Positions 2-52,830 of a stretch of DNA of 64,000 nucleotides are shown in pieces (within the stretch, counting starts at the first letter, position 1; each line of letters starts with the position of its first letter). The stretch covers positions 128,001-192,000 of IMG/VR virus record IMGVR_UViG_3300037466_003648, one strand, 5' to 3'. The DNA comes from a virus (Duplodnaviria; Caudoviricetes). The notes beneath the pieces are model-generated. The model was not told where the DNA came from. It made no database searches and saw only the letters and a program-made list of their open reading frames with translations. The translations under genes were made by a program, and so were the position numbers.

Positions 2-1225
2 TTGAACCTCAAGGGGATCGACTTCGCCTCCCACTCCAAGATGAACGTCTTCAACGAGTGCGGGCAGAAGTTCTTCTACGAGTACATCGACAAGTCGCGC
101 GTCCGCATCGAGAAGGACTACTTCATCATCGGCAGCGCGTGCCACAAGTGCATCGAAATGTACTACCTGGACGACTCGGGCAGCATCAACCACCCGCTCG
201 ACTACACGGACATTTACTGGCGCGACTGGCTGCGCTCCAAGCAGCTGGGCTTCCTGCTGGGCGACCTCAAGGTCATCGCGGCCGAGATCGCCCAGATCAA
301 CAAGCGCTGCCGGGCAGACTACACGGGCGAGGATGCCATCCGCCGCGGCGCCAAGCCCGAGAAGGGCGAGAAGAAGTACCCGCGCGGCAAGGAGTACCAC
401 AAGAACCCGGTCGCCGACAACCCGGCGATGACCGGCGACTACAAGCGCGCGATGGAAGAGCTGGACCTCGACCGGCGCATCCACGAGATCGATGTGCAGC
501 TCGTCGCCAAGGGGCCGGAGTTCGCCAGTGTGTCGTTGTCCAACTGCTACGCCGAAGTGCAAGAGATCCTGAAGCACTACAAGGACCCGGAGTGCTTGGC
601 CTCGGTCGATTACGTCGAGTTCCCCGTCTCCCACCGCGTGTGGGAGGGCAAGACCGTCGTGGACGTCATCAACCTGGTGAAGCTGCCCGGCAGTGATACC
701 GACCTGATGAACGGCTACATGGACCTCGTGGGTACCATGACCGCGAAGTACGGCGGCGGCGTCGGTCTGGGCGATTACAAGTCGTCCAAGAAGGAGTGCA
801 CCGTCCTGGAGGTGATGTACCACGCGCAGCTGAACAAGTACGCGTACATGTACTACGTCCTGTTCGGGGTCTGGCCGACGCATCTGTTCATCAACAACCT
901 GCGCTTCGGTACCGTTACCATCGCGCCCTGCAAGCCGGAGATCGCCATGGCGATCGTCGAGCAGTACGCGGCCGACGTCAAGGCGTCCAAGATCGCGGCC
1001 AACTACCGCAAGAAGGACCCGTTTGGTTTCGACTCTCCGTGCCTGACGTTCGAGAAGGACGGCAGTCTGAAGGAGCACTGCCCGCACCTCGTGAAGTGCT
1101 TCAAGCACATCGCGGAAGAGCTGGGCGTCGCACCCAAGCCGCTGGCTGATGGGTTCGGTACGGCCGAGAAGGTCGTGCGTGCCGAAGCCCCGATCGCCAG
1201 TCCCACGCTGAAGGATGGCTTCTAA
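2..1225 (+). CDS. PD-(D/E)XK nuclease, AddB/RecB/Cas4-like (5' end may lie outside the window)
   Basis: N-terminal SHSKMNVFNECGQKF...GSACHKCIE, catalytic region VEFPV...GYMDLV...DYKSS...QLNKY, C-terminal Cys cluster PCLTF...HCPHLVKC; strong G/C third-position bias. Confidence 0.8.
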   Translation: MNLKGIDFASHSKMNVFNECGQKFFYEYIDKSRVRIEKDYFIIGSACHKCIEMYYLDDSGSINHPLDYTDIYWRDWLRSKQLGFLLGDLKVIAAEIAQINKRCRADYTGEDAIRRGAKPEKGEKKYPRGKEYHKNPVADNPAMTGDYKRAMEELDLDRRIHEIDVQLVAKGPEFASVSLSNCYAEVQEILKHYKDPECLASVDYVEFPVSHRVWEGKTVVDVINLVKLPGSDTDLMNGYMDLVGTMTAKYGGGVGLGDYKSSKKECTVLEVMYHAQLNKYAYMYYVLFGVWPTHLFINNLRFGTVTIAPCKPEIAMAIVEQYAADVKASKIAANYRKKDPFGFDSPCLTFEKDGSLKEHCPHLVKCFKHIAEELGVAPKPLADGFGTAEKVVRAEAPIASPTLKDGF

Positions 1226-1243
1226 GTCACTCCTCGTTAAAAC

Positions 1244-1321
1244 CCTCTCCTGAAGCGGATCTTGACAGACTCTACTCCTGTAGTATTATAGGAGTAATCG
1301 ATCAAGTCCATTCAGGAGAGG
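1244..1321 (+). repeat. long imperfect inverted repeat spanning the promoter and RBS
   Basis: CCTCTCCTGAA 1244-1254 / TTCAGGAGAGG 1311-1321; inner arms GGA(T)CTTGA / TCAAGTCC and TACTCCT 1273-1279 / AGGAGTA 1290-1296. Confidence 0.8.
1262..1289 (+). promoter_or_regulatory. sigma70-type promoter upstream of the HU-like gene
   Basis: TTGACA 1262-1267, 16 bp spacer, TATTAT 1284-1289, in an AT-richer intergenic gap. Confidence 0.65.
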
Positions 1322-1323
1322 TC

Positions 1324-1671
1324 ATGACCACAAAGCCAACCCCACCGCTGCGCCACATGGAGTGGGTGCGCCTCGTCTGGAAGCAGACCGATGGCATCGA
1401 GCTGGAGGTCGTCCGCAAGGTGCTGCGCGCCGCCGTGGATGTTCTGGTTCGCGAGCTGCTCGCTGGTCGGACGATCTCGATCCGCAGCTTGGGCAGCTTC
1501 TTCACCTACGATCGCCCCGAGCGTCGGTTCTACAACCCGGCCGCCGGTGCCTTCGTCGACAAGCCCGTCACCCGTTTGCCCCGGTTCAAGTACTCGAACT
1601 GGCTCAAGAACCAGGTGATGGGCCGTCGCGTGAAGACCAAGGCGAAGGGCACGGTGTCCCCGGATGCCTAA
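1324..1671 (+). CDS. HU/IHF-like DNA-binding protein
   Basis: ELLAGRTISIRSLGSF...RPERRFYNP...RLPRFKYS matches the HU/IHF arm pattern; AGGAGAG RBS. Confidence 0.8.
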   Translation: MTTKPTPPLRHMEWVRLVWKQTDGIELEVVRKVLRAAVDVLVRELLAGRTISIRSLGSFFTYDRPERRFYNPAAGAFVDKPVTRLPRFKYSNWLKNQVMGRRVKTKAKGTVSPDA

Positions 1672-1972
1672 GCCTCATCCCGTCCGCGACAAGTTCCTCA
1701 AGTACCTCAAGGGTCCACTGGCCCATGACACCCCTTGGGTAGATGTCTCGGGCGTGTATATGGCGCACGAGGTTCGCGCTGCAATCAAGAAGATCGCCGC
1801 GACCGATCCCATTCTCCACCAGATCATCGACCAGTACGTGCGTACCCGCAAGGCGCGCATGCAGATCGCGCAGAGCGTGTCCTACGACTCGTCCACCGTC
1901 AAGCGCAAGCTCGACGAGGCTGCCGATCTGGTGATGCACAACCTCAAGCTCGACGCTCCCGAGGTCAAGTAA
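1664..1972 (+). CDS. HTH DNA-binding protein (possible transcription regulator)
   Basis: C-terminal HTH-like RMQIAQSVSYDSSTVKRKL; start overlaps the upstream stop. Confidence 0.55.
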   Translation: MPKPHPVRDKFLKYLKGPLAHDTPWVDVSGVYMAHEVRAAIKKIAATDPILHQIIDQYVRTRKARMQIAQSVSYDSSTVKRKLDEAADLVMHNLKLDAPEVK

Positions 1973-1975
1973 ACC

Positions 1976-2578
1976 ATGGTCAGCAAGCGCGTCCTCAAGT
2001 ACTTCAAGCGGCCTCTCCACGAGCCGTGCAAGGCATGCGCCGAGCGTGCCGTACAAGAGGCGACGGCGCTCGTCACCGTCGAGCTGCCTGCCTACGCGCG
2101 CAAGGGGCCACAGTCGGAGATCGACCAGTTCGGTCTGGGTGCCGAGGTCGTGCGCCTGTACACGGCAGGCATGACCCAACAGGAGATCGGCAACGAGCTG
2201 AACCTCACCAAGGACCAGGTTCAGCACTGGTTGGAAGGCTACCGCAAGATGTCGATCGACGACCGCAAGACGGTCCACAAGCGATCCATCTTCGACCTGG
2301 GTGATCGGCTGCAGGAAGCCTTCGAGATGATCTATCAGGAGCTAATCGATTCGAAGGAGAACAAGGATCTCAACAACAAGAACCTGCAGCTCCTGCTCAA
2401 GTGCATCCAGGTCGGTGGTGTCTTCATGGAGAAGCTCCACGCCCAGCAGGAGGATCGCCGCTACAAGGCCGCGATGCTCCAGGTGATGGAGGACATGGCG
2501 CCTGGTACCAAAGCCAAGGTGCTGCGCGCCCTCTCCGAGATGGACCTGAACAGCAACATCGTGCGGAGGCTGACGTAA
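1976..2578 (+). CDS. HTH protein, candidate terminase small subunit
   Basis: HTH MTQQEIGNELNLTKDQVQHWL followed by a helical/coiled-coil region; architecture typical of TerS, but function is inferred. Confidence 0.45.
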   Translation: MVSKRVLKYFKRPLHEPCKACAERAVQEATALVTVELPAYARKGPQSEIDQFGLGAEVVRLYTAGMTQQEIGNELNLTKDQVQHWLEGYRKMSIDDRKTVHKRSIFDLGDRLQEAFEMIYQELIDSKENKDLNNKNLQLLLKCIQVGGVFMEKLHAQQEDRRYKAAMLQVMEDMAPGTKAKVLRALSEMDLNSNIVRRLT

Positions 2579-2769
2579 TGTCGCTTCCGCGTGATCCCGA
2601 ACCGCGAGACATCGACGCCGAGCAGCAGATTCTGTTGGGTCGTTTCGACGTGGCGACCGAGAACTTGCGCGAGGCTCAAGCAGACCACGATCACACGAAG
2701 GCCGTTCGAGCGTTGAGCGACATGCACAACGCAATTCGGGGTGCAGGTCGTCTCCTGCAGGAGCTGTAG
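2578..2769 (+). CDS. hypothetical protein (63 aa, MSLPRDPE...)
   Basis: TAATG stop/start overlap at 2576-2580; fills the gap exactly to the next ATG at 2770. Confidence 0.65.
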   Translation: MSLPRDPEPRDIDAEQQILLGRFDVATENLREAQADHDHTKAVRALSDMHNAIRGAGRLLQEL

Positions 2770-3294
2770 ATGGCCACCTCCGATTCTACCGACCCGTCGA
2801 TCTCAGCCAGCTTCATGGCCGGGTGGGTCTACGCGGGTGTCCCCTACACCAAGGACGCGAACCGGACGGCCAACCCGGTGGGCACACCAAACTGGTTCTC
2901 CCGCGGTTCCCTGCACCGTGCCAAGTGGATTCGGCAGGGTCCCTTCGTCGACGTCAATGGGATGTACGAAGTCCCGGAGGACCACGCGTTGGTCTACTGG
3001 GAGATCAAGCAGGGCACCCCGGAGTGGCAGCCCCCGGTCGAGGAACGCATCCCCGCCATCCTGGCGATTCTTCCGATCGACCTGGAGTTTGTCGCAGGCA
3101 ACTGGCCGGGGGCAACCAGCCCACCGCTGTTGTTCCAGTCGGTCGATCCCGACCTTGCACTCATCGCCCCACAGGACGATGTCGCGGTGTGGTTCGCCCT
3201 GAGCGGACCGGCCCACATCGTTGGGCGGTTCCGCGTACCTGACGAGGTGGATCTGGGCTTCGGCCGCAGCAACCTGGGTGGGTGGGGACTCTAG
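2770..3294 (+). CDS. hypothetical protein
   Basis: 174 aa ORF abutting its neighbours, GC3-biased codons. Confidence 0.7.
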   Translation: MATSDSTDPSISASFMAGWVYAGVPYTKDANRTANPVGTPNWFSRGSLHRAKWIRQGPFVDVNGMYEVPEDHALVYWEIKQGTPEWQPPVEERIPAILAILPIDLEFVAGNWPGATSPPLLFQSVDPDLALIAPQDDVAVWFALSGPAHIVGRFRVPDEVDLGFGRSNLGGWGL

Positions 3295-3295
3295 C

Positions 3296-3964
3296 ATGAG
3301 TGCCACCAAGGACATCGACCAACTGATCGCCGACATCCGTCTCGCGACTGACTTGGTGGCCGAGAAGTCCTTGGTACGTCGCCTGCGTGGCGGTGCTGGA
3401 ACCCTGGACATCTTGAAAAGCGCGTTGGCACGCCTGGCCGAGATCCGTCAAACGTTCTCGATCCCCAACGACGTAGAGATTCTGGACTGGCTGAAGACAC
3501 AGCTTGCCGATCCACCGGCTATCACTGGTAAGGTGATCACTCCCGAAGTTGCGGAGCGCAGTGCTCAACGGTGGCTGCCTTCACCGGATGGTCCCGAACC
3601 TCCTGTTGTGGTCGAACCAGCCTCATTGGAACGGTTGCGACGTCGTCGTCCCAAACAGTGCGCTCGCTGCCCCAACAGCTTTATCCCGACGGGCTACCAA
3701 CAACCCTTCTGCCCTTCGTGTGTCGCTGCAATTGACATCGAGAACGCAGAGATCCGTCGCCAACAGATCGCGGCCGATCCAGAAGACGACAAACGGTCCG
3801 AGTCCGACACCTGGCCCAGCAGCAAGGTGAAGGGATTCCCTTGTGGCAGCTGCGTCAACGGTAAGAAGAACGACCTGTCCGAGAGCGGCTTCGAGTGCAC
3901 CACGAGCTGCGCCCGTGCGTGCGCCCCATGGGGTCCTGCGTGGAAGTACGAAGCGAAGGCTTGA
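3296..3964 (+). CDS. hypothetical Cys-rich (zinc-finger-like) protein
   Basis: ATG 1 nt after the upstream stop; CARC...CPSC and CGSC...CTTSCARAC motifs. Confidence 0.65.
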   Translation: MSATKDIDQLIADIRLATDLVAEKSLVRRLRGGAGTLDILKSALARLAEIRQTFSIPNDVEILDWLKTQLADPPAITGKVITPEVAERSAQRWLPSPDGPEPPVVVEPASLERLRRRRPKQCARCPNSFIPTGYQQPFCPSCVAAIDIENAEIRRQQIAADPEDDKRSESDTWPSSKVKGFPCGSCVNGKKNDLSESGFECTTSCARACAPWGPAWKYEAKA

Positions 3965-3989
3965 CAGGATTGCTTCTTGGTGCGATGAT
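3961..3989 (+). promoter_or_regulatory. sigma70-type promoter (P-a) for a short RNA
   Basis: TTGACA 3961-3966, 17 bp spacer, extended -10 TGc-GATGAT 3981-3989; TGGTGC/GCACCA inverted repeat flanks the -10. Confidence 0.55.
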
Positions 3990-3995
3990 AGCACC

Positions 3996-4077
3996 AGCCT
4001 GAGCTTCGGTTCCGTGTCCCAAACATTCCCGAAGCCTTCGCACGAAGCCCCTGCCCGCACAGGGGCTTCGTGCTGTT
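3996..4077 (+). ncRNA. putative ~80 nt small RNA
   Basis: follows P-a; stem GCTTCGG 4003-4009 / CCGAAGC 4029-4035 with a 19 nt loop; ends in a 14 bp hairpin; no credible ORF. Confidence 0.45.
4040..4077 (+). terminator. 14 bp perfect hairpin, probable terminator with a weak U-tract
   Basis: GCACGAAGCCCCTG 4040-4053 / CAGGGGCTTCGTGC 4060-4073, then TGTT. Confidence 0.55.
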
Positions 4078-4104
4078 GACACATGGATCGATCCATGGTA
4101 ACTT
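4076..4104 (+). promoter_or_regulatory. sigma70-type promoter (P-b) with a palindromic spacer
   Basis: TTGACA 4076-4081, exactly 17 bp spacer containing the perfect palindrome CATGGATCGATCCATG 4082-4097, extended -10 TGg-TAACTT 4096-4104. Confidence 0.7.
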
Positions 4105-4110
4105 ACATAC

Positions 4111-4395
4111 ATCAGGCTCTGTCGGAGTGCGGGACACGGAAGACAACCTGCTGGGAGCGAAGGGGCCGCTAGACGCCTGACGCCCTCGAAGGAAGAACCC
4201 GCGGAGTTCTTCACCGTTGTCCCTACCCTCCAATCGTACCCACGGGTCGAGCGGAGTTCCCGAAGGCTGGCCTTGACGGCCTGTACGACTGGAACGTGGG
4301 GGTAGGGGGACACGGTTACTTCGAGGGAGACTCAGCTAACCACTTCCGCCTGACGGGCGGGCGCGCGAGACGAGCCACACGGCTCGTCTTTTTGT
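4111..4395 (+). ncRNA. putative ~285 nt structured non-coding RNA (family not recognised)
   Basis: bounded by P-b and an intrinsic terminator; nested helices TCAGGC/GCCTGA, CGGAAG/CTTCCG, GCTGGG/CTCAGC, CCCTCGAAG/CTTCGAGGG, GAAGAAC/GTTCTTC, CCGTTGTCCC/GGGACACGG, TCGTAC/GTACGA. Confidence 0.65.
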
Positions 4396-4397
4396 TT
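4367..4397 (+). terminator. intrinsic terminator
   Basis: AGACGAGCC 4368-4376 / GGCTCGTCT 4381-4389, 4 nt loop, followed by TTTTGTTT. Confidence 0.85.
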
Positions 4398-4425
4398 GGG
4401 ACCGCGGGTCCTGGGAGGAGATCCG

Positions 4426-4707
4426 TTGCTAAAACTGTACGCCCTGCTAATGATCGTGGGAGCGATCATCGCCTTGACCGGCTTGCTCTGGGCGATCCCG
4501 GAGTACGGTCAGCTGTACCGCACCTGGTTCGTGCTTTCCTCCACCAAGTCGACCGATGCGGTTTGGTTGACACGGCTCTCCGCCCAAGTGCAGATCCACC
4601 GCCTCAACTGCTTTGCCGAGGCGCTGGGTTCCTTGGCCGGACTCTTCATGATCGTGGGCGCCTTGTTAGGCATCTCGATCGAGCGGTTGCGTTCGGCGCC
4701 GCGTTAG
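4426..4707 (+). CDS. small membrane protein (two hydrophobic segments, 93 aa)
   Basis: GGAGGAG RBS before TTG 4426; hydrophobic N- and C-terminal stretches; stop overlaps the stop of the convergent giant gene. Confidence 0.65.
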   Translation: MLKLYALLMIVGAIIALTGLLWAIPEYGQLYRTWFVLSSTKSTDAVWLTRLSAQVQIHRLNCFAEALGSLAGLFMIVGALLGISIERLRSAPR

Positions 4708-35362: not shown

Positions 35363-37122
35363 TACACCACCGCCTTGGTCACCGTGACCGTGCCACTGCC
35401 GTACGCGTACGTGTGGGTTGCTGTCTTTCCGTTTGCAACGTAGACCTTCGTTGCAATCGATCCGTCGCTGTTGTACGTGATGGTCAAGGTCTTGACCGTC
35501 GTCGCGCCGTTCTTCCAGGTCACCGTTGCCAAGGTCCCATCCGCGTTGAGCGTCTGGTCTTCCTCCAGGGTACCCGTCTCCATGTACGTGCCCATGTCTG
35601 GGAGCATCGTGGAGTCGATCACACCGCCTGCAGTCGTCTTGACGATCGCGTTAGCCGTGCTTGTAACTGCTGGAGCGGATCCCTGGAGTGTGATTGCATC
35701 GATGTCGTTGTCAGAGATCGAGCAACTGATTACTACCTTAGCAGTACTAAGTGGGATATTTCCGGCAACAAATGTGATCTTGGTTCCCGTGCGGGTGTAG
35801 TCGGTTCCTCGTACTTGGATCGCACCCGACTTCCACACCATCTCGTAACCACCCGTGGTGGGCAAGGTGTAGGTGGCGTTACCGGTTCCCGCGTCGGCAG
35901 CAACGATGGCCGGGACGGACATGGCACCCAGATCGGTGGCAGCGACCGACACACTGATCGTCACCTTCGACGTACTCAGTGGGATGTTTCCCGCCACAAA
36001 GGTGATCTGGTTGCCCGTGCGTGTGTAGTCGGTGCCGCGTACCTGGATCGCACCCGACTTCCATACCATTTCGTAGTTGCCCAGGTACGGGAGCGTGTAC
36101 GTGGCGTTGCCCGTACCCACATCTGCGGTGACCACCACGGGCACCGACATGGCGCCTGGCAGGTTGCCGATCGTGGACAACACACCTCCAGAGTAGGCAA
36201 TCGAAGTGCCATCGACCGCGTTATCCAACAACACCGTGCGATCGGCCCCATTGACACGCGTGAAGACGCCGCCGGTCGTGGTCCAGAAGTCTCCGTCCAG
36301 GGGTGTGGTGGGTGCGACGCCGTGCGGTAGATTCAACGAGGCTGCGCCTGCAGTTGCCGCTGACAACATGGTTCGTCCGTTCTCACTGACGGAGAACAGC
36401 AGCGTACCACCGGCCGCTGTGTTCGCGTTCGTGCGCACGGCGAACTTGCGCGTGGTGTCGCTGTTGTCCGAGTCGATCAAGACAATGACATCGGCCGTGG
36501 AATTGACCACCGTACCATTGCTACTATCGACAAACAGCCCGTTGTTGGCGTTGAGTCCCAGGTAGCTGGTTGGAACCGCGTTTGCCGTCGTCGCGGCAAT
36601 CGCGTGAACCGTTGCTGTCAACGTAGTGTTGTTGCTTGCATCGATCGCGCCAACCGTGATATTGCCATTGTCCGCCGCGTTGCGGAAGGTCAACAGGCCC
36701 GCGTTACCAATGACGACACTACCCTTGATGTACGCACCGTTGGTGGGTACCTTGCTCACATCAGCATAAGCACTGGATACGAGCAACTGACCAACATTGA
36801 CACCCACGGCAGCGCTGCCGTTAAGAAAGTTGATGGGGACCGTCGACCGCAGCTGACCGCTTGTCAAGGTCAGACCACTGGCACCCCCAACCGTCATGTT
36901 ACCGGCGAAGTTGGGGGTGGTGGCGTTGTACAGGGCGACGTTGGTCGACAGCGTGCTGTCCGCCAACCCGTTGGTACCCAAAGCAGCGTTGACGTTGGCG
37001 CCGTTGATCGAGATCGTGCCCGCGGACAGCCCGATGTTCGATCCAACGATAACGGCGCCGCGGACGGCGCCCGCAGCGAGGGGTAGGTGGTTGGCTGGGT
37101 AAAGGCTACCTTCGTAAGACAT
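35362..37122 (-). CDS. tail fibre protein
   Basis: 586 aa; internal tandem duplication of a ~68 aa module; YD-like C-terminus. Confidence 0.7.
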   Translation of the reverse strand: MSYEGSLYPANHLPLAAGAVRGAVIVGSNIGLSAGTISINGANVNAALGTNGLADSTLSTNVALYNATTPNFAGNMTVGGASGLTLTSGQLRSTVPINFLNGSAAVGVNVGQLLVSSAYADVSKVPTNGAYIKGSVVIGNAGLLTFRNAADNGNITVGAIDASNNTTLTATVHAIAATTANAVPTSYLGLNANNGLFVDSSNGTVVNSTADVIVLIDSDNSDTTRKFAVRTNANTAAGGTLLFSVSENGRTMLSAATAGAASLNLPHGVAPTTPLDGDFWTTTGGVFTRVNGADRTVLLDNAVDGTSIAYSGGVLSTIGNLPGAMSVPVVVTADVGTGNATYTLPYLGNYEMVWKSGAIQVRGTDYTRTGNQITFVAGNIPLSTSKVTISVSVAATDLGAMSVPAIVAADAGTGNATYTLPTTGGYEMVWKSGAIQVRGTDYTRTGTKITFVAGNIPLSTAKVVISCSISDNDIDAITLQGSAPAVTSTANAIVKTTAGGVIDSTMLPDMGTYMETGTLEEDQTLNADGTLATVTWKNGATTVKTLTITYNSDGSIATKVYVANGKTATHTYAYGSGTVTVTKAVV

Positions 37123-52042: not shown

Positions 52043-52830
52043 TACATGCCCTCCGGCAAGCTGCCCGCGGCAAGCGCTCCGGCGCCCTGCCCGATGGCAA
52101 CCGTGTCCGCCTGCGCCATCACCTGGCGCGCGTGCGTCAATGCGGTCGAGGTGGTGGCCTTCTCTGCCTGTCCGATCTGCTTCGAGATCGCGGCGAAGCC
52201 TTGGGCCAGTCCGCCCATGTTGGTGGGGTCGAGCTTCGCCGCCATGTCCGCTGCCTGGGCCAGCGAGTTGGCCGCGAACATGCCGTGCATCTCGGGCTCG
52301 GTCTGGGAAAGACCCTTGTGCCGGGTGTCCGTGGCACCCTGCGCGTGATGGGTCTCTTTGCCCACGATGAGCTGGCTGTGACCACCCTGGTCGTCCAGCA
52401 TCTGGATCGAACCGGGGGTGTAGTCATAACCAGAGCCCAAGCGCCCCTGCACGGCGTAGAAGTTCTTCTGATCCTTGAGCGAGGGATGCGAGGGAGCGGG
52501 GTAGTCGCCCTCCGAGTACATGACGCCCGTGACCTCGGCCTGGCCGACACCACCGTGCTTGCCGTGCTTCATCTCGACCTTGACTTCGGCCCCGTCGTGC
52601 GGCAGGGCGTGGATCCCCGTACCCGCTCCGGCCGACCACGGCACCGACACCCGCACGTTGTGCAGGGTGATGTTCATGAGGGGCAAGTAGACGTCGACGC
52701 GGTGCGGATCGCTCTTCTGCGATCCCTCCACCACACGGCCGGTCATTGGACCCTTGGCGGGGTCCGCCCACTGGTCGTTGTAATGGCCGAAGGTGTCGTC
52801 CCAGGTAGGGCGGTTGAAGCCGAAGTCCAT
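52042..52830 (-). CDS. baseplate spike N-terminal OB-fold protein (gp5/gpV/VgrG-like)
   Basis: GRVV....DPHRVDVYLP...VRVSVPWSAGAGTGIHALPHDGAEVKVE; GGAGG RBS before ATG 52830. Confidence 0.7.
   Translation of the reverse strand: MDFGFNRPTWDDTFGHYNDQWADPAKGPMTGRVVEGSQKSDPHRVDVYLPLMNITLHNVRVSVPWSAGAGTGIHALPHDGAEVKVEMKHGKHGGVGQAEVTGVMYSEGDYPAPSHPSLKDQKNFYAVQGRLGSGYDYTPGSIQMLDDQGGHSQLIVGKETHHAQGATDTRHKGLSQTEPEMHGMFAANSLAQAADMAAKLDPTNMGGLAQGFAAISKQIGQAEKATTSTALTHARQVMAQADTVAIGQGAGALAAGSLPEGM

Follow-up and report, generated by a model that had tools for sequence, protein, structure and literature searches.

Why would a phage place two tandem predicted promoters in a gap between its genes, each followed by an RNA-like structured unit, with the first unit displaying in a hairpin loop a sequence complementary to the beginning of the second? 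This question is raised by positions 3961-4397 of the 64,000-nt stretch of DNA analysed here (hereafter the window), which corresponds to bases 128,001-192,000 of a virus record (IMG/VR record IMGVR_UViG_3300037466_003648) that is 205,180 bp long and bounded by direct terminal repeats. The host of this two-part module is an uncultured soil jumbo phage whose genome has a G+C content of about 64%. We propose, with moderate confidence, that the module is a tandem pair made of an antisense RNA and its non-coding target, both encoded on the same strand, in which the short upstream RNA would kiss and open the 5'-terminal hairpin of the long downstream RNA. The loop match is kept in three copies of the module despite mutations, which suggests that one RNA is devoted to the control of another, non-coding RNA. 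The parts that carry this argument are the following, the ends of both RNAs being predictions.

3961-3989, plus strand: promoter P1, TTGACA-17-GATGAT with a TG upstream; 10 of 12 matches in a strict promoter scan
3996-4076, plus strand: predicted short RNA of about 80 nt, its ends deduced from promoter and hairpin
3996-4002, plus strand: segment 'a', AGCCTGA, complement of 4112-4118; judged a chance match
4003-4035, plus strand: antisense hairpin, with a 7-bp stem (4003-4009/4029-4035), a 19-nt loop (4010-4028) and, within it, a 4-bp mini-stem (4014-4017/4023-4026)
4010-4020, plus strand: antisense core TTCCGTGTCCC, at the start of the 19-nt loop
4041-4072, plus strand: hairpin T1, presumed terminator of the short RNA, with a 13-bp G+C-rich stem and a 6-nt loop
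4076-4104, plus strand: promoter P2, TTGACA-17-TAACTT with an extended -10 TG; begins 3 nt past T1
4111-4397, plus strand: predicted long structured non-coding RNA of about 285 nt (about 270-310 nt over the copies)
4111-4152, plus strand: 5'-terminal hairpin of the long RNA, with stem a (CAGG 4113-4116/CCTG 4147-4150), stem b (4120-4123/4142-4145), stem c (4127-4129/4135-4137) and an apical loop (4130-4134)
4131-4141, plus strand: target site GGGACACGGAA, reaching from the 3' half of the apical loop through the 3' strand of stem c into the internal loop next to it

Three copies of the module, from two phages, were compared. Copy 1 is that of the window (3961-4397). Copy 2 is a paralogue revealed by a search of the phage's own genome, at genome positions 83,212-83,68x, 48.7 kb upstream of copy 1. 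Copy 3, an orthologue in a related phage, was located by means of the C-terminal part of the giant virion-type protein of the window phage, which led to a 4,108-aa counterpart on a contig (L030) encoding a terminase 74% identical to ours; the module lies there in a 454-nt gap just past the giant gene, in the same gene order (approximately 23054-22578, minus strand). All three copies share one arrangement: a consensus promoter, a short hairpin RNA, a G+C-rich hairpin of terminator type, a second promoter and a long structured RNA. The loop of copy 2 presents TTCCCTGTCCCCA, and its long RNA aligns with that of copy 1 at both ends. In copy 3, P1 and a loop presenting TTTCGTGTCCCC are followed by a canonical terminator, complete with its U tract; P2 and the long RNA come next, then a second terminator and a small membrane-protein gene homologous to that of the window. 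Because the genes upstream of copies 1 and 2 are unrelated, we regard the module as a unit in its own right; the proteins that flank it in the two phages are 29-33% identical.

A preliminary description of this locus had proposed that the short RNA carries two segments complementary to the long one, and all the strings on which it relied were found where it placed them (AGCCTGA at 3996-4002, GCTTCG at 4003-4008, TTCCGTGTCCC at 4010-4020, TCAGGCT at 4112-4118, GGGACACGGAA at 4131-4141, GGGACACGG at 4307-4315, GCCTGA at 4175 and 4348, and CCGTTGTCCC at 4214-4223). The two segments fared differently. The loop sequence 4010-4020 is an exact 11-nt complement of 4131-4141, a length reached between the two units in 0.6% of dinucleotide shuffles, and the match is kept in both further copies; shuffle tests on the longest complement gave p = 0.006, 0.006 and 0.034 for the three copies, and the full-length complement occurs only once in the 205-kb genome. 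By contrast, the 7-nt match of 3996-4002 with 4112-4118 is at chance level, the shuffles containing on average 1.75 complements of at least 7 nt. Of this match, copy 2 keeps 5 nt at another offset, and copy 3 keeps only a wobble-rich remnant that overlaps the predicted start of transcription. The expected conservation of complementarity between the units in homologues thus held for the 11-nt duplex, in three copies out of three, and not for the 7-nt match, and the pseudoknot imagined from two pairing segments loses one of its legs.

The changes that this duplex has undergone keep it paired. At the homologous place, copy 1 forms 11 Watson-Crick pairs, copy 2 forms 12 and one G.U pair, and copy 3 forms 10 and one G.U pair. 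Between copies 1 and 2, a G to C change in the loop is accompanied by a C to G change in the target (4014 with 4137), and a C inserted in the loop faces an inserted G on the target side. Two differences are one-sided, those of copies 2 and 3, and both place a U opposite a G; no change breaks a pair. A paired G/C swap would be equally expected of two copies of a single protein site, if the 11-mers were inverted-repeat half-sites of a regulatory protein around P2 and a shift of its specificity altered both, imitating compensation. The two sites do bracket P2, 56 bp before its -35 hexamer and 20 bp past its predicted start. However, the two one-sided differences set T against G, keeping RNA pairing and breaking DNA symmetry; both sites stand at the apex of hairpins with covarying stems, which a DNA site does not need; and no DNA-binding gene travels with the module, the upstream genes of the two loci being unrelated. 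We therefore regard such a DNA-level element as highly improbable, the least credible of the alternatives considered here.

The hairpins that present the two sequences have evolved in another way than the sequences themselves. The short unit folds as two hairpins (-41.9 kcal/mol, z = -6.8 relative to shuffles). The stems of the loop hairpin are unrelated in sequence across the three copies (GCUUCGG; GUCUGUG/GGGGUG; GGGAGUUGUAG) and all still pair; identity among copies is 81-88% in the loop core, 53-60% over the whole hairpin (51-60% with T1 included) and about 50%, the background level, in the stems below the loop and in T1. In the long RNA, the first 45 nt form the three-part hairpin, in which 7 of the 14 pairs are kept through two-sided changes over the three copies, and nucleotide identity in this hairpin is 72-91% among copies and 91% between the two phages. 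In copy 2 the duplex extends to 21 Watson-Crick pairs and one G.U pair with one bulged A (12 plus 10 adjacent nucleotides, the 10 extra pairs lying past the bulge), and a covariance model of the 5' hairpin also matches the reverse complement of the copy-2 short hairpin (E = 0.008). Judging from these sequences, this model match and the extended pairing point to an origin of the short hairpin by inverted duplication of the target hairpin. The same two features would suit a relic, that is, a functionless match left over from the duplication; pairing over 22 nt, as in copy 2, is what a recent inverted duplication would give. This we hold to be very improbable, because the decay is uneven, with stems at background identity, a loop core at 81-88% and every change keeping the pairing, and because the design has persisted in the paralogues as well as between phages with neighbouring proteins of about 30% identity.

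Are there then two RNAs or one? The P1 layout also scored in copies 2 and 3, and P2 has counterparts with the same hexamers in copy 3 and with TTGACG-18-TAGGGT in copy 2. Twelve sites in the genome match TTGAC[AG]-N16-18-TAnnnT, four of them inside the two module copies of this phage; all 12 are on the plus strand, as expected of a real promoter class. The U tract of T1 is weak in copy 1, poor in copy 2 and canonical in copy 3. The main rival to our reading starts from this last point and supposes that transcription from P1 reads through T1, yielding a single RNA of about 400 nt whose loop would pair, within the same molecule, with the 5' hairpin located 110 nt farther downstream, as a long-range tertiary or pseudoknot contact, with P2 as a secondary start or with two isoforms. 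The minimum-energy fold of 3996-4395 indeed forms the loop-target helix (z = -6.5), as do the whole-module minimum-energy folds of copies 1 and 2, the two copies in which T1 is without a good U tract. We nevertheless consider a single RNA unlikely: every copy has an extended -10 promoter between its two parts, copy 3 has a canonical terminator as its T1, and the minimum-energy fold of the copy-3 module leaves the hairpins separate. What survives of the preliminary description is its core, two RNAs with separate predicted promoters and a complementarity to the long RNA in the loop of the short RNA; three copies with compensatory and wobble-compatible changes support it. Its suggestion that GCTTCG might pair into T1 as an antiterminator does not, the GCTTCG/CGAAGC repeat being absent from copies 2 and 3.

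The 5' end of the module shows one further regularity. The upstream open reading frame (ORF) of the window, 3221-3964, ends with a TGA inside the -35 hexamer of P1, and each of the three copies has the upstream stop codon coincide with the TGA of TTGACA (window 3962-3964; copy 2, L002:1102-1104; copy 3, L030:23053-23051, minus strand). This overlap is kept although the upstream ORFs at the two loci of this phage are unrelated.

The long RNA contains no credible ORF and, in the window, is followed by a small gene. Its features beyond the 5' hairpin, and those that adjoin it, are these.

4174-4181, plus strand: loop repeat CGCCTGAC, first copy
4299-4317, plus strand: block B (GGGGTAGGGGGACACGGTT), with the same sequence in copies 1 and 2; pairs with 4213-4232 in a long central helix
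4347-4354, plus strand: loop repeat CGCCTGAC, second copy
4367-4397, plus strand: intrinsic terminator T2, a 10-bp stem and a T run
4412-4420 and 4426-4707, plus strand: ribosome-binding site (RBS) and gene of a 93-aa protein with two transmembrane (TM) segments, without a promoter of its own; taken here as a neighbour of the module
L002, approximately 1364-1371 and 1546-1553: loop repeats of copy 2
L030, approximately 22825-22819 and 22642-22636, minus strand: loop repeats of copy 3

Predicted energies favour the 5' hairpin as the place of contact. Corrected for accessibility, binding at the 5' site amounts to -12.4 (copy 1), -12.3 (copy 2) and -10.9 kcal/mol (copy 3), as opposed to -3.8, +0.3 and +12.9 kcal/mol at the second site in block B, the most conserved element of the long RNA, where the second GGGACACGG (4307-4315) is buried in the central helix; opening costs 4.8 kcal/mol at the target 4131-4141 and 10.7 kcal/mol at that second site. 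Within the phage, the core duplexes of the cognate partners reach -20.0 and -25.7 kcal/mol, against -16.8 and -15.0 kcal/mol for crossed partners, so that the two pairs appear at least partly orthogonal; the differences between them fall at the duplex centre, so that every short RNA is expected to favour the long RNA of its own module.

We infer from these features that both RNAs are produced, that they bind each other and that the long RNA is inhibited or refolded through this binding, in the following manner. P1 would drive the synthesis of an RNA of about 80 nt consisting of a loop-presenting hairpin and then a terminator hairpin, and P2 that of the structured non-coding RNA of about 285 nt. 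The first contact would be made from loop to loop, CCC with GGG, between two hairpin tips that are near mirror images, and could then spread to 11 bp in copy 1 and up to 22 in copy 2. By spreading it would displace the 3-bp stem c and open the 5' hairpin of the long RNA. Occupying or freeing this 5' site might in turn shift the balance among alternative folds. The invasion and refolding envisaged in the preliminary description are plausible in this respect, as the target lies in a hairpin predicted to be accessible and copies block B, the 3' strand of the central helix, and the loop of the short RNA copies block B's partner, the 5' strand.

The small gene that follows the long RNA calls for another explanation to be weighed, an antisense-controlled attenuator in which the long RNA would be the leader of this membrane-protein gene and the short RNA would decide whether transcription terminates at T2, in a manner comparable to the countertranscript-driven attenuation of pT181 and pIP501. 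In copies 1 and 3, a terminator is indeed followed after 30-40 nt by an RBS and by homologous small two-TM genes without their own promoter (the 93-aa protein is 29% identical to the 90-aa product at the same place in the related phage). Copy 2, however, has neither a terminator nor such a gene after its long RNA, a third promoter and a transfer RNA (tRNA) array taking their place. The alternative pairing between target and terminator that the mechanism calls for (4115-4123 with 4369-4376) is not conserved, with a mere 4-nt GGCC counterpart in copy 3, and this mechanism would not usually involve a leader with as much as about 250 nt of stable structure. An attenuator is in our view distinctly unlikely.

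If the module is an antisense RNA with a non-coding target, does it belong to a known class? Among phage systems, the closest in layout are c4 of the P1/P7 immI operon and CI of P4, in which short complementary segments lie in loops and changes in these segments give specificity between related elements. The module resembles them in that a short phage RNA precedes its target on the same strand, presents its complementarity in a loop and differs in specificity between related pairs. It departs from them in several ways: its three copies have no match to the Rfam C4 model (E up to 10), its short RNA has a predicted promoter and hairpin terminator of its own whereas c4 is processed from an operon transcript (RNase P), and only one of the two proposed segments is real. 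Further, c4 of P1/P7 is described, in PMC8198154, which cites Citron and Schuster (1990), as blocking icd/ant expression. The target here is the 5' hairpin of a non-coding RNA rather than an RBS; the nearest start codon (4426) comes 285 nt after it, beyond the terminator, and copy 2 is followed by no such gene.

Among plasmid systems, RNA I/RNA II of ColE1 and CopA/CopT of R1 start their pairing from hairpin loops, the target's hairpins lying at its 5' end, and a single loop difference creates orthogonal pairs; in ColE1 the target is itself non-coding, and binding changes the fold of its remainder. Each of these antisense RNAs comes from the strand opposite its target gene and is complementary to it throughout. 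The module likewise holds its complementary sequences in hairpin loops of both partners. Unlike ColE1 RNA I, CopA and pT181 RNA I, its two units are both on the plus strand, the short one being a separate gene in tandem, and their complementarity covers only 11-22 nt. The module also recalls the logic of sponges or anti-sRNAs, where a small RNA (sRNA) is paired with an antagonist (PMC8687705), insofar as one non-coding RNA appears dedicated to base-pairing with, and antagonising, another. Its target, though, is a multi-branched RNA of about 270-310 nt and not a seed-bearing sRNA, and the predicted contact site is not its most conserved single-stranded element. A search of Rfam 15 with cmscan returned no meaningful match for the whole window at the gathering threshold or for the three copies at E up to 10. 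Given that no Rfam family matches, that the target is not an RBS and that the regulator is not encoded on the opposite strand, the module belongs to none of the c4/CI, countertranscript (ColE1, CopA-CopT) and sponge classes.

The neighbourhood of copy 2 brings in a different comparison. A plus-strand array of 32 tRNAs (L033:359-4184; genome 83,958-87,783) begins about 270 nt past its long RNA, with the third consensus promoter, TTGACA-18-TACTGT, between the two at genome position 83,687; copies 1 and 3 are not beside tRNAs. GOLLD and ROOL are large structured phage RNAs that are often found beside tRNA islands and have covarying intermolecular kissing loops (PMC12286853). The long RNA shares with them its phage origin, an adjoining tRNA island in copy 2 only, and a predicted covarying intermolecular kissing loop. 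It could accordingly be imagined that the long RNA represents a new class of phage structural RNA associated with tRNA islands and that the short RNA, instead of being a repressor, is a dedicated docking subunit, joined to it by the kissing loop in a two-RNA, possibly multimeric, RNA-only assembly comparable to those of ROOL and GOLLD; were this so, the two orthogonal pairs of this genome would amount to two distinct particles. Yet the long RNA is less than half the size of GOLLD and ROOL and matches no Rfam model, and its kissing partner is a different, smaller RNA rather than another copy of itself. The same difference in partner, together with the lack of a match to the Rfam packaging RNA (pRNA) model, separates it from phi29-type packaging RNA. 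To us, a docking subunit is quite improbable.

Several points weigh against the antisense reading that we favour. The statistics are weak, coming from three related sequences in two phages. The swap between 4014 and 4137 is also needed to maintain stem c (4127 with 4137) and the mini-stem of the loop (4014 with 4026), and it is therefore not independent proof of intermolecular pairing; the two hairpin tips being mirror images, one event serves several pairings. The starts and ends of the transcripts are predictions only. P2 combines a perfect -35 with a weak -10 hexamer and falls below the strict scan in which P1 scored, and the poor U tract of T1 in copies 1 and 2 makes read-through from P1 possible. 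A relative with 54% terminase identity (G001) is without the module, beside its giant gene or elsewhere, in a 72-kb contig that CheckV estimates at 35% completeness, as judged by blastn, nhmmer and a covariance model. Finally, the consequence of binding is pure inference on our part.

To our knowledge, the antisense RNAs described in phages have messenger RNAs as their targets. The phage studied here appears to maintain, for a large structured non-coding RNA, a regulator or partner RNA of its own, with two mutually specific pairs in one genome. If confirmed, the module would add a new family of structured phage RNAs, together with a simple and testable handle on the function of the long RNA, namely a short RNA acting as a switch, and a natural example of orthogonal kissing-loop pairs. 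The promoters are sigma-70-like and the parts short, so both RNAs can be made in vitro or in a laboratory host, and culture of the phage is unneeded.

How widespread is the module? In the genome of the window phage, copy 1 fills a gap with a plus-strand gene block on one side and, on the other, a convergent gene for a 3,972-aa virion-type protein followed by the terminase gene. This terminase is only 31% identical to that of the nearest isolated phages, the Microcystis phage Ma-LMM01 group; homologues exist in metagenomes, and DNA of the phage itself occurs in soil and rhizosphere metagenome runs, among which no RNA run is listed. Blastn of the module against phage and plasmid collections gave no match, and scans of viral, metagenome and genome contigs for the pattern of conserved blocks returned only a near-identical strain (L004) or chance matches in unrelated DNA. 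Searches with the adjacent 247-aa protein and with the giant virion protein retrieved only the same phage, and one that started from the nuclease alignment gave nothing in viral contigs. Nothing points to the guide system that had also been considered, given that the module is linked to neither a nuclease nor an effector gene. The DNA contigs that cover the region were identical and thus provide no natural variants. The near-identical strain, IMGVR_UViG_3300037419_002628, whose giant protein is 96% identical to that of the window phage, differs from the window by 24 single-nucleotide polymorphisms (SNPs) in 402-3391 and by none in 3392-4466, which includes the whole RNA module; we do not count this as evidence because SNP density is patchy.

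Two elements of the long RNA have additional properties. Each long RNA bears one short motif twice, in two separate hairpin loops, and the variable part of this motif changes in concert within each module (CGCCTGAC in copy 1, CGCCAGTT in copy 2 and CGCCTAA in copy 3); no pairing partner for it is consistent across the three copies. In copy 2 only, the leader of the short RNA, AACTGGCGT, is the exact complement of the loop repeat motif. A 19-mer matching block B at 16 of 19 positions (GGCGCAGGCGGACACGGTT) lies on the minus strand at window 52099-52117, inside a minus-strand coding region, and may be due to chance. Elsewhere in the genome, at 68,950-69,020 and 80,028-80,095, two consensus promoters are each followed by a hairpin that sequesters an RBS; the loops of both hairpins share TCCCTATCCG, an 8-nt complement, with one wobble, of GGGTAGGG in block B, in a G+C-rich background that makes genome-wide target prediction too noisy.

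Two observations concern other genes of the window and of its relatives. The terminase of the window phage (16626-18605) is free of intein and homing-endonuclease domains, and several of its homologues in related metagenomic phages (P0008 and P0011-P0015) reach 900-1,100 aa and contain such domains (PF14890, PF14528). The plus strand carries a predicted solitary tRNA-Ala (GGC) at window 36968-37056, far from the main tRNA array and among long minus-strand ORFs.

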